DNA of 64,000 nt from an uncultured Actinomycetota bacterium (GCA_963823965.1 CAWGNO010000014.1:44698-108697), one strand, 5' to 3'. Shown: positions 993 through 6,788, numbered from the stretch's first letter. Numbers and translations are program-made. Notes: generated by a model from the sequence alone, not told the origin.

Positions 993-2600
993 TCAGGCAC
1001 CGACCGGCTGCGCCTCGGCCTCGGCCGGGGCGGTCCGTGTCTCGTCGATCTCGTCGGCACGCGCGATGGTCGTGCGCAGCGGCACCTCCCGGATCATCAG
1101 GACCGCGACCAGTGCCAGGACGGCGAACGGGGTGGCCAGCCAGAAGATGTGGCCGGTCGCGTCGGCGAACGCGGTCTGGAACACCTCGCGCACGGGCGCC
1201 GGGAGGGTCGCCAGGTCGGGGACGGACGTGCCGGTCCCCTCGGCACTCGGCGCGATCCCCAGGGCGACGAGTCCGGCGGCGACCCCCGCGCTCACCTTGT
1301 GCCCCAGCGCGGTGCCCATCGCCGAGACCCCGACCGAGCCGCCCATCGTGCGGAAGAAGGCGGCCAGGGAGCTCGCGGCGCCCATGTCGGCCTGGGCTGC
1401 GTTGTTCTGCACCACCAGGACGAGGTTCTGGTTCACCGCCCCGATCCCGATGCCCAGGACGGCCATGAAGGCGCCGACCTCGAACAGGCCGATCGTGGCG
1501 TCGATGGTGCTGAGCAGGGCCAGCCCCGTCACCATCAGGACGGCGCCGCCGACGATGTAGCGCTTCCAGGTGCCGGTCCGGGCGATCAACCGGCCGGTCA
1601 CGATGCTGGAGACGAGCAGGCCTCCGACCATGGCCAGGGACATCAGGCCGGCCCGGGTCGGGGACATGCCGCGGGCGAGCTGGAAGTACTGCGAGAGGAA
1701 GACCGTGGCCCCGAACATCGAGACCCCCACCATGACGGAGGCGAAGACGGCCAGGCTCGTGGTGCGGTCCCGGAAGAGCCGGAGCGGGATGATCGGCTCG
1801 GCGACCCGGGTCTCGACGTACACGAACGCGAGCAGGAGCGCGAAGCCCAGGCCGAGCATCCAGGCGGTCGTCGGCGACTGCCAGGCGAACCGGGTGCCGG
1901 CGAGGGAGACCCAGAGCAGGAGCACCGAGACGCCCGAGGCGACGAGGGCGGCGCCGAGGTAGTCGATCGAGACCTGCCGCTTCACGGTGGGCAGGTGCAG
2001 GGTCTTCTGGAGGACGACGAACGCCAGGGCGGCGAAGGGGACGCCGACGAAGAACGTCCAGCGCCAGCCCAGCCAGGAGGTGTCCACGATGAGCCCGCCG
2101 ATGAGAGGTCCGCTGACCGTGGCGATCGCGAAGACCGCACCGAGGTAGCCGAAGTACCGGCCACGCTCGCGGGGGGAGACGATCGTCGCGATCACGATCT
2201 GGACCAGCGCGGTCAGGCCGCCGACACCGACGCCCTGGACCGCGCGGGCGCCGATGAGGAACCCCATGCTGGGGGCGAGCCCGGCCATCAGCGACCCGGC
2301 CAGGTAGATCACGAGGGCCACCTGCACCAGCACCTTCTTGCTGAACAGGTCGGCCAGCTTGCCCCAGATCGGGGTCGTGGCGGTGAGCGCCAGGAGGGTC
2401 GCCACCACCACCCAGGTGTAGCCCGACTCGCTGCCCTCGAGGTCGGCGACGATGCGCGGGAGCGCGTTCGACACGACCGTCGAGGAGAGCATCGCGACGA
2501 ACATGGCGATCAGGAGGCCGGAGAGGGCTTCCAGCACCTCACGGTGCGACATGGGCTCCGCCGTGTGGGCGGGGGCCGGGGAGTGGGGGGTGCGGGTCAC
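993..2600 (-). CDS. DHA2 (EmrB/QacA-type) 14-TM MFS efflux transporter
   Basis: MLSSTVVSNALPRI, WGKLADLFSKK, ARAVQGVGVGG, RERGRYFG motifs; GTG at 2600 preceded by GAGGA. Confidence 0.92.
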   Translation of the reverse strand: MTRTPHSPAPAHTAEPMSHREVLEALSGLLIAMFVAMLSSTVVSNALPRIVADLEGSESGYTWVVVATLLALTATTPIWGKLADLFSKKVLVQVALVIYLAGSLMAGLAPSMGFLIGARAVQGVGVGGLTALVQIVIATIVSPRERGRYFGYLGAVFAIATVSGPLIGGLIVDTSWLGWRWTFFVGVPFAALAFVVLQKTLHLPTVKRQVSIDYLGAALVASGVSVLLLWVSLAGTRFAWQSPTTAWMLGLGFALLLAFVYVETRVAEPIIPLRLFRDRTTSLAVFASVMVGVSMFGATVFLSQYFQLARGMSPTRAGLMSLAMVGGLLVSSIVTGRLIARTGTWKRYIVGGAVLMVTGLALLSTIDATIGLFEVGAFMAVLGIGIGAVNQNLVLVVQNNAAQADMGAASSLAAFFRTMGGSVGVSAMGTALGHKVSAGVAAGLVALGIAPSAEGTGTSVPDLATLPAPVREVFQTAFADATGHIFWLATPFAVLALVAVLMIREVPLRTTIARADEIDETRTAPAEAEAQPVGA

Positions 2601-2628
2601 GTACGTGGTCCTCGTGGCTCTGGCGGGA

Positions 2629-2677
2629 ATAGTTGCTGTCCGCAACTATAGCTCCGGACGGTTGCCGACGACAACTA
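2629..2677. promoter_or_regulatory. Paired inverted repeats (probable MarR operators) over the MFS promoter
   Basis: ATAGTTGC-tgtcc-GCAACTAT (2629-2649) plus degenerate copy GGTTGC-cgacg-ACAACTA (2660-2677); minus-strand TTGTCG-N18-TATAGT promoter overlaps both. Confidence 0.65.
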
Positions 2678-2699
2678 ATTTCACCTGCCGGAAATGTTC

Positions 2700-2729
2700 T
2701 TGTCGCGCTCACCAGGGCCGTCGTACCGT
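2700..2729 (+). promoter_or_regulatory. Principal-sigma-type promoter for the small ORF/RNA locus
   Basis: TTGTCG (2700-2705)-N18-TACCGT (2724-2729). Confidence 0.5.
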
Positions 2730-2760
2730 GGAGGGACACGAGGAAGGAGGTGGTCCAGAA

Positions 2761-2799
2761 GTGAATTCTTTACGGACTCGTGAGGTGGCTGCTAGCTAG
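2761..2799 (+). CDS. Candidate 12-aa small peptide (VNSLRTREVAAS)
   Basis: Perfect SD AAGGAGGT at 2744-2751, 9 nt before GTG; upstream promoter; stop codon lies in a 16-bp palindrome. Confidence 0.45.
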   Translation: MNSLRTREVAAS

Positions 2800-2872
2800 C
2801 AGCACACCGGCCAGCACGACTGTGCCCTTCGGCATGAGACCGGTGGGCAGCTGGCAATACCGAGCAGTCACC

Positions 2873-2952
2873 CGACCCGCAGGTGCTCCGGGACGTCCGC
2901 CCGGAGAGCGACCGTCCTCGTCGAGGACGGAGCCGCACACGCCTGCGGGTCG
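2873..2952 (+). ncRNA. Structured RNA element (three-way junction), family unassigned
   Basis: Perfect 11-bp closing stem 2873-2883/2942-2952 enclosing perfect hairpins 2886-2906 (7 bp) and 2912-2930 (8 bp). Confidence 0.5.
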
Positions 2953-2970
2953 TCTGCGTTCCGAGGGCCG

Positions 2971-5058
2971 TCAGGACACGGCCGGCGCAGCGAACTGCGC
3001 GCCGTGGAGCGCGGCGTACGCCCCTTCTGCCGCCAGCAGCTCCGCGTGGGTGCCCCGCTCGACGATCCGGCCCTCCTCCATCACGAGGATCAGGTCCGCG
3101 TCGCGGATCGTCGAGAGCCGGTGCGCGATGACGAAGCTGGTCCGGTCGGTCCGCAGCGCCGCCATGGCGTGCTGGACCAGCAGCTCGGTGCGGGTGTCCA
3201 CCGAGCTGGTCGCCTCGTCCAGGATCAGCAGGGCGGGGTCGGACAGGAACGCCCGGGCGATCGTGACCAGCTGCCGCTCCCCTGCGCTGATGTTGCCGCC
3301 CTCCTCGTCGATGACGGTGTCGTAGCCGCCCGGAAGCGCGTGCACGAACCGGTCGACGAAGGCCGCCTGCGCCGCCTCGACGATCTCCTCCTCCGTGGCG
3401 TCCGGCCTGCCGTAGGCGATGTTGTCGCGGATGGTGCCGCCGAACAGCCACGTGTCCTGGAGCACCATCCCGATCTGCGACCGCAGCTCGGCCCGCGGCA
3501 TCCGCGCGATGTCGACGCCGTCCAGCGTGATCCGGCCCTCGTCGACGTCGTAGAACCGCATCACCAGGTTCACCAGGGTCGTCTTGCCCGCGCCCGTGGG
3601 ACCCACGATGGCCACCGTCTGCCCCGGCCGCGCGACCAGCGACAGGTCCTCGATCAGGGGCGTGTCCTCCTCGTAGCGGAAGGAGACGTGCTCGAGGGCC
3701 ACCTCGCCGCGCTGCTCGGGAGCCGCACCTTCGCGGGCGACCTCGACCGGCTCCTCCTCGGCGTCGAGCAGCTCGAAGACGCGCTCGGCCGAGGCGACGC
3801 CGGACTGCAGCAGGTTCACCATGGACGCCACCTGCGTCAGCGGCTGGGTGAACTGCCGGGAGTACTGGATGAACGCTTGCACGTCCCCGAGCGACATCGT
3901 GCCGCCGGCGACCCGCAACCCGCCGAGGACCGCGATCACCACGTAGTTGAGGTTCCCGATGAACATCATCGTCGGCATGATCACGCCGGAGACGAACTGC
4001 GCTCCGAAGCTGGCCTTGAACAGCTCCTCGTTCTCCTCGTCGAAGACCTGCTCCACCTCGCGCTGGCGGCCGAACACCTTGACCAGGGCATGCCCGGTGT
4101 AGGCCTCCTCGACGTGTGCGTTGAGCCGGCCGGTGCGCCGCCACTGCGCGACGAAGAGCTTCTGGCTGCGCCTCATGATCGCGCCGGTGACCAGGATGCT
4201 CACCGGGATCGTGACCAGGGCGACCAGCGCCAGGACCGGCGAGATCCAGAACATCATCGCCACCACGCCCACGACGGTCAGCAGCGAGGTCACCAGCTGG
4301 CTCATCGTCTGCTGCAGGGTCTGGCTGACGTTGTCGATGTCGTTGGTGACCCGGCTGAGCAGCTCGCCGCGGGGCTGCTTGTCGAAGTAGCGCAATGGCA
4401 GCCGGTTGATCTTCTCCTCCACGTCGGCGCGCATCCGGAAGACCGTGGCCTGCACGACGTCGTTGAGCAGGAAGCCCTGCAGCCACCCGAGTGCGGCGGA
4501 CGCGACGTACACACCCAGCGCCAGCAGGAGGACCTGCCCGACGGCGGAGAAGTCCACCCCCTGCCCCGGGACCAGGTGGTCGACCCCGGACAGCAGCTCG
4601 GCGATCTGGTCCTCGCCGCGTGCCCGCGCGGCGGCGACGGCCTGCTGCTGCGTGATGCCCGGCGGCATCTGCTTGCCGAGCACGCCGGCGAAGATCAGGT
4701 CCGTCGCGCGGCCGAGGATCTTGGGCCCGACCACGGCGAGGGCCACGCTGAGCACGCCGAGGGAGAGGACGGTGAGCACCTTCGCGCGCTGCGGCCGGAG
4801 CCGCCCGATGAGCCGGCGCGCGGACGGCCCGAAGTTCTCGGACTTCTGGCCCACCATGCCGCCGCCGAAGGGTCCGCGCCCGGGGCCGGGGCCCTGGACG
4901 ACCCGCTCGGTCTCCTTCATCCGCCCCGAGGCAGCCGCTGCAGCCTGGCCGTCGCCCGCCGGGCCCTGCCCGTCGCCCGCACCCGGCCTGTGCCCGTTGG
5001 TCGACAGCGATGCCTGGCCGTCGGTACCGGGCTTCTGCCCGTTGGTCTGCCCGCTCAC
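2971..5058 (-). CDS. ABC exporter subunit (TMD+NBD), heterodimer partner with canonical catalytic residues
   Basis: Walker [10 protein letters not shown], signature ISAGERQL, Walker [10 protein letters not shown]-switch IAHRLST; N-terminal TM domain. Confidence 0.93.
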
Positions 5059-6788
5059 GCCGCACTCTCCGCGGTCAGCTGCGAGGAGACGATCTCCTGG
5101 TAGGTCTCACAGGTCTCCAGCAGCTCCTCGTGGGTGCCCTGCCCCACGACCATCCCGCCCTCCAGGACGAGGATCTGGTCCGCGTGCACGATCGTCGAGA
5201 CCCGCTGCGCCACGATCAGGACCGTCGACTCGGCGGCGACCGGCGCGAGCGCCTGGCGGAGGCGGACGTCGGTGGCGAGGTCCAGCGCCGAGAAGGAGTC
5301 GTCGAACAGGTAGATCCGGGGACGCTTGACCACGGCACGGGCGATCGCGAGCCGCTGCCGCTGTCCGCCCGAGACGTTCGTGCCGCCCTGTGCGATCGGG
5401 GCCTCCAGGCCGCCGGGCATCGCCTCCACGAAGTCACGCGCCTGCGCCACCTCGAGCGCGGCCCACATCTCCTCCTCGGTGGCGTCCGGCTTGCCGTAGC
5501 GCAGGTTGCTGGCGACCGTGCCCGAGAACAGGTACGCCTTCTGCGGCACCAGACCGATGCTGTCCCAGAGCACCTCCGGGTCGATCCGGCGTACGTCCAC
5601 GCCGTCGACGTACACGGCTCCGGAGGTGGCGTCGAAGAGCCGCGGCACCAGGTTGACCAGCGTGGTCTTGCCGGCGCCGGTCGAGCCGATGATGGCCGTC
5701 GTCCGCCCGGGCCGGGCGGCGAAGGTGATCTCGCGCAGCACCGGGTCGTCGGCGCCGGGGTAGCTGAACCCGACGTCGCGCAGCTCCACCTCACCGAGCA
5801 GCGACTCGGGCCGCACCGGGTCGGCGGGAGGCACGACGGAGGACTCGGTGTCGAGGACCTGCTTGATCCGGTCGGCACACACCGCCGCGCGCGGCACCAT
5901 CACCAGCATGAACGTCGCCATCATCACCGACATCAGGATCTGCACCAGGTAGGCCAGGAAGGCCGTCAGAGACCCCACCTGCATCGACCCGGCGTCGACC
6001 CGGTGGCCGCCGAACCACAGCACCGCCACGCTGGAGACGTTGAGGATCAGCATGACCGCGGGGAACATCGTCGCCATCCAGCGCCCGACGGTGATCGCCA
6101 CCCCGGTGAGCTCGGCGTTGGCGTCCTCGAAGCGGCGGGTCTCGTAGGGCTCGCGGACGAAGGCGCGGACGACCCGGATGCCGGTGATCTGCTCGCGCAG
6201 GATCCGGTTCACCGCGTCGATGCGCTCCTGCATCACGCGGAAGCCGGGGAGCATGCGGGAGGCGATGAAGCCGACCGTCACCACCAGCGCGGGCACTGCC
6301 ACCACCAGCAGCCACGACAGCCCGAGGTCCTGGCGCATCGCCATCACCACGCCGCCGACCATCATGATCGGCGCCGTCGCCATCATCGTGCAGCCGAGCA
6401 GCACCAGCATCTGCACCTGCTGCACGTCGTTGGTGTTGCGCGTGATCAGCGACGGCGCACCGAACTGGTCGACCTCGCGCCCGGAGAACGACCCGACCCG
6501 GTGGAAGATCCCCGCGCGCACGTCGCGGCCGAACGCCATCGCCGTGCGGGCGCCGAACCAGACCGCGGTGATCGTGCAGGTGATCTGCACCAGCGCGACG
6601 GCCAGCATGACCGCGCCGATGCGGACGATGTAGCCGGTGTCGCCGCGGGCCACGCCGTTGTCGATGATGTCGGCGTTGAGCGTCGGCAGGTACAGCGCCG
6701 CCATCGTCCCGAGGAACTGGAGAGCGACGACGGCGGTGAGCTCACGCCGGTAGGCGTCGAGGTAGGTGGTGAGGAGGCGGACCAGCAT
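5055..6788 (-). CDS. ABC exporter subunit (TMD+NBD), degenerate-site partner
   Basis: [37 protein letters not shown]; 4-nt overlap with the partner gene. Confidence 0.93.

Follow-up and report, generated by a model that had tools for sequence, protein, structure and literature searches.

A stand-alone Ms_IGR-5 small RNA of Actinomycetota with a micro-ORF embedded in its fold and a possible role in ribosome engagement

Identity and distribution of the structured RNA

What is the compact, highly structured element that lies between two transporter loci in the genome of an uncultured member of the Actinomycetota? In the window (the whole 64-kb stretch of DNA that was analysed, with coordinates counted from its first nucleotide), the first-pass annotation had described an elaborate three-way junction at 2804-2952 and had proposed that it forms the 3' domain of a plus-strand transcript of roughly 215 nt, acting either as an sRNA or as an mRNA protective or processing element. 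A permissive Infernal scan of 2400-3200, the Rfam search that the annotation had itself recommended, identified the Rfam family RF02471 (Ms_IGR-5, "Actinobacteria sRNA") at 2736-2958 on the plus strand, with 110.5 bits against a gathering score of 45 bits and an E-value of 6e-26. The match is full length (model positions 1-184 of 184), not truncated and restricted to the plus strand, and the transcript of about 2736-2952 outlined earlier is therefore essentially a member of this Rfam family. It is also the sole gathering-level Rfam match within the 64 kb. The earlier statement that no hammerhead or riboswitch motif is recognizable agrees with the scan, in which no riboswitch or self-cleaving ribozyme family matched 2400-3200 up to E = 10 and no other Rfam family scored at the gathering level. 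Judged from the sequence, it is almost certain that 2736-2958 (+) belongs to the Ms_IGR-5 family and constitutes an independent sRNA gene. The family is already known and catalogued, and the window copy adds one member to it.

The family is widespread and nearly always present in single copy. In a sample of 401 genomes drawn evenly across Actinomycetota, Ms_IGR-5 was detected in 101 genomes at E <= 0.001, with 41 exceeding the cut-off, and 100 of the 101 positive genomes carry one copy, as does the 4.2-Mb genome containing the window. Within the window's own class, 24 of 31 genomes are positive at the same threshold. From this sample, 90 homologous loci were fetched, of which 88-90 entered the comparisons described below. 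A second set was collected with the pattern AGGAGGTGRTCC-N15-40-GAGGTGRCYG, taking one genome per species, and comprises at least 120 loci. Among the pattern matches listed are Nocardioides, Marmoricola, Streptomyces, Micromonospora, Mycobacterium, Acidimicrobiia and Solirubrobacterales, together with matches outside Actinomycetota on contigs labelled Ignavibacteria, Terriglobales, Blastocatellia, Pyrinomonadaceae and Syntrophobacter. The closest relatives of the window copy among the matches listed belong to Nocardioidaceae (L127, L100 and L133).

The window copy and the Ms_IGR-5 consensus share the order of their elements, namely a 5' ACAC, GGAAGGAGGUGGUCC, GUGAGGUGGCUGC, the GCUAGC stem, AAUCC and CAGUCACCC, and both end in a GC-rich 3' stem with a GUCC loop. 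The family and the window copy also have in common a single gene copy, an own promoter, which is a predicted one in the window, and an A as the first base.

Several members of the family have been detected as transcripts. In Streptomyces lividans TK24, Ms_IGR-5 is an RNA-seq-validated sRNA (PMC8079986), and in S. avermitilis only two sRNA transcription units that match Rfam have had both their transcription start site (5' end) and their 3' end mapped, and Ms_IGR-5 is one of these (PMC8780764). The Mycobacterium smegmatis IGR-5 corresponds to ncMSMEG15794c, according to Li et al. (2013) as cited in PMC10454040. Its gene is flanked by MSMEG_5794 and MSMEG_5795; the RNA starts with a +1A, carries an NAD cap and has been termed "validated but yet uncharacterized" (bioRxiv 10.1101/2021.12.14.472595). 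Ribosome-protected reads have been reported on the Ms_IGR-5 homologues of M. abscessus and M. smegmatis, with the reservation that true non-coding RNAs can also give ribosome-protected fragments (PMC4974804). No function of Ms_IGR-5 is reported in the literature found. The M. tuberculosis RNA ncRv10810c (bioRxiv 10.64898/2026.08.18.745482) was considered as a homologue and rejected, being at a different locus, and names of the ncRv10812 type gave no literature match.

Genomic setting and promoter

The Ms_IGR-5 gene is intergenic, with an MFS transporter gene (993-2552, minus strand) on its upstream flank and convergent ABC exporter half-transporter genes (2971-5058 and 5055-6788, minus strand) on the other side. 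The ABC pair shows fused TMD-NBD proteins, a 4-nt overlap and the typical layout of a heterodimeric exporter. All-against-all clustering of flanking ORFs across the homologous loci revealed no conserved fixed neighbour of Ms_IGR-5. A divergent YgfZ/GcvT-like neighbour at 26 loci was dropped from consideration, because in the mycobacterial loci it consists of ORFs antisense to a class-IV aminotransferase gene.

No co-oriented gene follows the sRNA at the window locus, the next gene being the convergent ABC gene, and the proposed mRNA protective or processing element is therefore unsupported. The same setting bears on the idea of a leader-peptide attenuator or riboswitch-like cis leader for a downstream gene. 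Translation of a short ORF within the RNA would indeed remodel downstream helices in an attenuator-like manner, but the neighbouring genes vary by lineage, the gene that follows here is on the opposite strand and no riboswitch family matches, leaving a cis-leader function extremely improbable.

A promoter-like sequence can be read upstream of the RNA, with TTGTCG at 2700-2705, an 18-nt spacer and TACCGT at 2724-2729 (+), the latter ending 6 nt before the first base of the RNA, an A at 2736. The first base is A in 89 of 90 homologues. TAnnnT occurs 5-8 nt upstream of the RNA start in 56 of 90 homologous loci, and 27 of 90 have TTGnnn in addition; across the 90 loci, the -35/-10 pattern is less uniform than the impression gained by eye.

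The flanks of the gene contain further palindromic elements. A perfect 8-5-8 palindrome, ATAGTTGC-TGTCC-GCAACTAT, occupies 2629-2649 and is adjoined by a weaker related site, GGTTGCCGACGACAACTA (2661-2678). It overlaps the -10 element of TTGTCG-18-TATAGT (2674 to 2645, minus strand), the only sigma-70-like minus-strand promoter found, which faces the MFS gene, and the palindrome is probably the operator for a putative repressor of that gene. At the opposite end, the hairpin GGCCGT-CAGGAC-ACGGCC (2966-2983) sits between the convergent ABC gene and the sRNA 3' end and overlaps the ABC stop codon (2971-2973, minus strand).

Ribosome-binding site and micro-ORF

Close to its 5' end, the RNA carries AGGAAGGAGGUGGUCCAG (2741-2758, +; GGAGG core at 2746-2750), a complement of the 16S rRNA 3' tail. 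The 16S rRNA of the same organism, read from the genome, ends in ...GGUGCGGCUGGAUCACCUCCUUUCU-3', and 2741-2758 can pair with each of the 18 nt of its single-stranded tail, 16 of them by Watson-Crick and 2 by G.U pairing. All 19,264 GGAGG sites of the genome, counted over both strands, were scanned for pairing with this tail. The full 18 nt is matched only in the sRNA and antisense to the two 16S genes, and the next-best site reaches 15 nt. The G residues of the Shine-Dalgarno (SD) core and the UG are invariant in 88 homologues.

The consensus of the Caulobacter sRNA CC2171 (RF01867) likewise begins with a sequence complementary to the entire 16S 3' tail, GAAAGGAGGUGAUCCAG, which accounts for a sub-threshold match of this family at 2734-2808 (+; 17.6 bits against a cut-off of 75, E 0.23). 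Membership of the window RNA in CC2171 is not supported, as the score is below 75 bits and the rest of the model is unaligned. By analogy, CC2171 may be a comparable RNA in Alphaproteobacteria.

A micro-ORF of 12 codons (MNSLRTREVAAS; GTG to TAG, 2761-2799, +) begins 10 nt after GGAGG and ends with the stop codon at 2797-2799. In the homologues, the stop lies exactly five codons past an invariant GAG in 88 of 90 loci, and TAG, TGA and TAA all occur. A canonical in-frame start is present 5-14 nt past GGAGG in 53 of 90 homologues, and in 80 of 90 when CUG is counted, compared with 3-4 of 90 for each of the other two frames; in the window's class, all 25 of 25 loci have an in-frame start. Many lineages outside Actinomycetes use CUG or some other non-canonical codon as the in-frame start. 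The distance from the SD to the GAG ranges from 24 to 40 nt, yet the frame is kept. The comparison of homologues thus finds the SD, the start, the open frame and the stop all conserved, and on these grounds, together with the published ribosome-protected reads on homologues, the micro-ORF is likely to be translated.

These observations also weigh on the possibility that Ms_IGR-5 is a conventional trans-acting base-pairing sRNA, in which the ORF-like features would be by-products and the single-stranded segments would be seeds for mRNAs. The family was discovered and filed as an sRNA in Rfam, and its stand-alone gene without fixed neighbours is in keeping with such a role. However, strong conservation among the single-stranded segments is confined to a perfect SD extension, for which the 16S tail is the best cellular complement, a frame kept across indels is unexpected for a pure riboregulator, and no target is known. 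A purely base-pairing function is accordingly rated unlikely.

A second SD-like sequence, GAGGUGG (2782-2788), lies within the micro-ORF, 5 nt upstream of its last sense codon, and would have an SD-like spacing from the P site when UAG (2797-2799) occupies the A site. Its distance to the stop is fixed in 88 of 90 homologues. This sequence may be a mere consequence of the helices P2 and P3 described below, or it may retain the terminating ribosome.

Predicted secondary structure

The modelled transcript (2736-2958, +; RF02471) folds with -113.1 kcal/mol and a z-score of -4.58, and its minimum free energy (MFE) and centroid structures agree on three adjacent helices, P1, P2 (enclosing P3) and P4. 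P1 pairs CACGAG (2737-2742) with CUCGUG (2777-2782), a pairing found in the MFE and centroid structures and in the covariation analysis, and its 3' strand coincides with codons 6-8 of the micro-ORF. The apical loop of P1 is 34 nt long and AU-rich and holds the SD, the GUG start and codons 1-5; the linker with the start and first codons has 43% GC, compared with 68% for the rest of the RNA. P2 joins GGUGGCUGCU (2784-2793, codons 8-11) to AGCAGUCACC (2863-2872), the former seen in the MFE structure and the latter, which includes an anti-SD-like UCACC, in both the MFE structure and the alignment. An AAUACC junction motif (2856-2861) precedes the P2 3' strand.

The middle domain, P3 (2795-2855), matches the second helix of the Rfam model. 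Its base, GCUAGC (2795-2800) with GCUGGC (2850-2855), pairs the stop codon UAG, and its inner stem, CACCGG (2805-2810) with CCGGTG (2840-2845), encloses TGCC (2823-2826) and GGCA (2831-2834). The 3' domain (2873-2952) is a three-way junction closed by the 11-bp stem P4 (CGACCCGCAGG, 2873-2883, with CCTGCGGGTCG, 2942-2952), which is evident both in the sequence and in the RNAfold structure. It contains the hairpin P4a (CTCCGGG, 2886-2892, with CCCGGAG, 2900-2906, and the loop ACGTCCG at 2893-2899) and the hairpin P4b (CCGTCCTC, 2912-2919, with GAGGACGG, 2923-2930, and a GTC loop), the latter an insert in the cmscan alignment. The 11-bp stem, the two hairpins and the CACCGG/CCGGTG and TGCC/GGCA pairings were thus all correctly placed by the first-pass annotation, and RNAfold of 2804-2952 (+) reproduces its three-way junction with -81.2 kcal/mol and a z-score of -4.98 (0 of 200 shuffles as good). 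The closing stem and the GUCC-loop hairpin recur in homologues throughout the phylum, and therefore the junction is beyond chance. The middle stem and the 3' stem-loop of the Rfam model are both present in the window fold, whereas P4b is an extra hairpin inside the 3' stem relative to the mycobacterial-type Rfam consensus.

Covariation and a contact between the 3' loop and the ORF

The homologues were compared in two alignments: A1, a MAFFT alignment of 88 homologues with 402 columns, and A2, consisting of gapless motif-anchored excerpts from 79 distinct sequences rather than a full structural alignment. Since A1 contains register shifts in P2a and P4, A2 was used for covariation. The formal counts cover P1, P2b (the distal half of P2), a pairing between the P4a loop and the ORF, the first helix of the Rfam model and a GGUCC:GGAC hairpin, with shuffles and slid partners as controls, which remove phylogenetic relatedness only in part.

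In the 34-nt apical loop of P1, CGGAC (2773-2777, +; codons 5-6) is complementary to GUCCG in the P4a loop (2895-2899, +), allowing a kissing, or pseudoknot (PK), interaction between the ORF and the 3' domain. P1, the PK and P2b together give a covariation value of 0.344 in A2, compared with 0.120 +/- 0.008 in shuffles, of which 0 of 500 reach the observed value, and with no more than 0.096 when the partners are slid. The three core pairs of P1 are exchanged as AU35/GC29/CG9, CG57/AU13 and GC58/AU11, and two pairs of P2b as UA56/CG22 and CG26/GC25/AU7/UA4 (A2). The PK alone reaches 0.247, against 0.075 in shuffles (again 0 of 500 reach it), and slid partners do not exceed 0.073; over its six pairs, 89.7% of cells are paired and double changes occupy 51 cells, with 16.5 +/- 4.1 expected (A2).

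The GUC of the P4a loop is invariant in A1. Across homologues the contact comprises 5-6 bp, with an invariant GAC/GUC core and flanking pairs that change on both sides, as in AGUCCGG/CCGGACU, CGUCCGG/CCGGACG, GGUCCG/CGGACC and UGUCCG/UGGACA, and further in GGUCGA/UCGACC, GGUCUC/GAGACC and AUCCG/CGGAU. An alignment-free replication was carried out on independently fetched pattern-match loci, of which 87 of 117 were analysable. The complementarity of each loop to its own ORF averaged 4.87 nt, compared with 4.16 +/- 0.08 after permutation (maximum 4.37 in 200 permutations), and the set added the pair variants GGAUG/CAUCC and GUGAC/GUCAC. The kissing contact between the P4a loop and codons 5-6 is very probably real.

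The first helix of the Rfam model, in which the SD segment GGUGGU pairs with GCUGCC, shows no double-sided change (0.183, compared with 0.184 in shuffles). The first-pass annotation had made its reading depend on compensatory changes in homologues; these are found in P1, P2b and the loop-ORF contact and are lacking in the first Rfam helix. P1, P2 and the loop-ORF contact, all covarying, are absent from the cmscan structure line, which suggests that the published Ms_IGR-5 consensus structure should be revised. A 5' hairpin near the start, formed by GGUCC after the SD and GGAC, was tried and rejected: it is formable in most sequences, with a covariation of 0.093 compared with 0.102 in shuffles. 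Possibly it competes transiently with the kissing contact.

Constraint on the micro-ORF

The micro-ORF was compared at the level of its residues as well as its frame. No conserved peptide was found in the homologue alignment, the sequence varying except where the RNA is invariant or paired. GAGG and the following G (2782-2785 and 2787) are invariant in A1, U2786 is conserved in at least 90%, and the third positions of the GAG and GUG codons are constant in its 88 sequences. Codons 5-7 change radically (R/W/G, T/P and R/C/E/L), exactly where base pairs covary, and the N-termini of the micro-ORF are unrelated from lineage to lineage. With start, stop and frame fixed while residues vary, it is the frame that is under selection and not obviously the peptide, a pattern that suggests constraint at the RNA level rather than the peptide level.

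This bears directly on the view that the peptide is the product, so that the locus would be a gene for 12-14 amino acids with a strong ribosome-binding site, whose structure only tunes expression or stabilizes the mRNA. Such a gene would agree with the conserved frame, start and fixed stop, with a C-terminal consensus of x-E-V-[AT]-[AGV]-x and with a few synonymous changes in the N-terminal HKP-type codons (CAU/CAC, CCG/CCC). However, GAG and GUG are never replaced synonymously among 88 sequences across the phylum, residues 5-7 follow the covariation of base pairs in their radical changes, the N-termini bear no relation to one another between lineages, and about 160 nt of conserved structure extend past the stop. 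A peptide-coding function is therefore considered distinctly unlikely.

Variation of the junction and termination

The 3' domain could also be no more than a terminator, possibly bidirectional, for the convergent ABC operon, the sRNA or both. In accord with this, a GC-rich stem stands at the sRNA 3' end, 19 nt from the stop of the ABC gene (2971-5058), and relatives in other phyla have a plain U-tract terminator at the equivalent place. However, no intrinsic terminator was detected, with 0 terminator-like sites in 2500-3100 on either strand and no U-tract on either strand, the tail reading UCUGCGUUCC. The minus strand of 2804-2952 folds less well in the shuffle control (z -2.48), G.U pairs are strand-specific, and the conserved P4a loop covaries with the ORF. 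The absence of a U-tract and the covarying loop bear out the first-pass view that the element is more elaborate than a simple terminator of the ABC gene.

In one actinobacterial lineage, an additional perfect GC hairpin with a U-run (e.g., ACCGGCCCCCGGCUCGGGGGCCGGUUUUUUU) stands apart from P4, about 10-20 nt beyond it. This arrangement occurs at L038, L041, L045, L054, L058, L079, L086 and L088, and the canonical terminators of L038, L041 and L088 in particular speak against the terminator reading. P4 is therefore more than a terminator and termination is separable from it, and a role of the junction in termination only is very unlikely. Inside the closing stem, two hairpins are present in 57 of 88 homologues and one in 29 of 88, the one-hairpin form being the mycobacterial type that underlies the Rfam consensus.

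The more distant relatives dispense with the junction. L093, L112, L135, L145, L146 and L164, on contigs labelled Ignavibacteria, Terriglobales, Syntrophobacter, Blastocatellia and Pyrinomonadaceae, share the promoter, the super-SD, an AUG micro-ORF, GUGAGGUGGCUG and AAUCC..CAGUCCACC, and have a plain U-tract terminator without the GGAC/GUCC pair. Relatives in other phyla retain the SD, an ORF or ORF-like region, P1, P2, P3 and the AAUCC motif. L087 and L089 are reduced actinobacterial variants of about 140-165 nt that keep the SD, an ORF-like region, P1- and P2-like elements, P3 and AAUCC; they have a plain terminator and lack a stop at the fixed position, the GGAC and the GUCC-loop hairpin. 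As both the relatives outside Actinomycetota and L087 and L089 are without the junction, the junction and the kissing contact are accessory to the core function. From these sequence comparisons, the two are best described as an Actinomycetota elaboration of an older core.

A proposed model of ribosome engagement

Collectively, the best overall explanation, which we favour with moderate confidence from the sequence evidence, is a stand-alone Ms_IGR-5 sRNA that engages ribosomes and whose fold would be unzipped by translation. That its function is exerted through ribosome engagement is rated somewhat below an even chance. The RNA would be transcribed from its own promoter, end at the three-way junction and form a rod of three stacked helices, in which the apical loop of P1 would display the complement of the 16S tail, the GUG and the first four codons. 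In the predicted fold, codons 5-6 are in the kissing contact, codons 6-8 in P1, codons 8-11 in P2 and the stop in P3, and nearly everything from codon 5 to the stop is paired, save single-nucleotide junctions.

A 30S subunit would dock on the super-SD and start region exposed in the AU-rich loop. The kissing contact and P1 would begin 12-16 nt past the start, about at the mRNA entry of the ribosome, and initiation and the first elongation steps would therefore have to open both. A translating ribosome would have to disrupt first the kissing contact and then P1, P2 and P3, complete translation unzipping the rod as far as P3, and the RNA would thereby switch from a closed fold to an open one and back. 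In such a mechanism, the act of translation or the capture of a ribosome would matter and the peptide would be incidental. The output could be titration or sensing of ribosomes, stability of the RNA, or exposure of the anti-SD-like UCACC in P2.

More tentatively, and by analogy, Ms_IGR-5 could be a ribosome-acting housekeeping RNA common to several phyla, which captures the 30S subunit and in which, in Actinomycetota, the junction latches the first codons. This extension is doubtful. If it were true, the kissing latch would either keep a ribosome at the initiation stage or control its entry, and the RNA would act as a decoy or store for free, anti-SD-competent ribosomes, or as a sensor of such ribosomes or of the unwinding that they perform.

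Routine annotation with Rfam would already pick up the element in the window. The analysis adds for the family a revised secondary structure, a quantified case for translation and, through the loop-ORF contact, a role for the junction. Few structured RNAs are both single-copy and conserved throughout Actinomycetota; Ms_IGR-5 is one of them, being present in mycobacteria and streptomycetes alike, and it has relatives in other phyla. Its architecture offers inexpensive mutational tests, directed at the longest genomic SD, the frame, the burying helices and the covarying junction contact.

Comparison with known systems

Dual-function sRNAs such as SgrS/SgrT, RNAIII/hld and SR1/SR1P are small stand-alone RNAs with a short translated frame. 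The window RNA differs from sRNAs of the SgrS/SgrT type in that its frame is built into the conserved fold and encodes a peptide that lacks conservation, and translation itself, rather than the peptide, appears to be selected. In leader-peptide attenuators, including trpL, the erm leaders and the mycobacterial polycysteine uORFs, the passage of a ribosome through a mini-ORF melts helices. The window RNA resembles them in that ribosome passage through its mini-ORF would melt defined helices; however, no gene lies downstream in cis, and the RNA ends at its own 3' domain. 6S RNA and the mycobacterial Ms1 are sequestering RNAs (PMC4191392). By analogy only, Ms_IGR-5 would be like them an abundant-type housekeeping sRNA mimicking a ligand of a core machine, whereas its target machine would be the ribosome and it would be a putative mimic of an ideal mRNA start site. 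If the housekeeping role across several phyla were true, the role of Ms_IGR-5 toward ribosomes would resemble that of 6S and Ms1 toward RNA polymerase.
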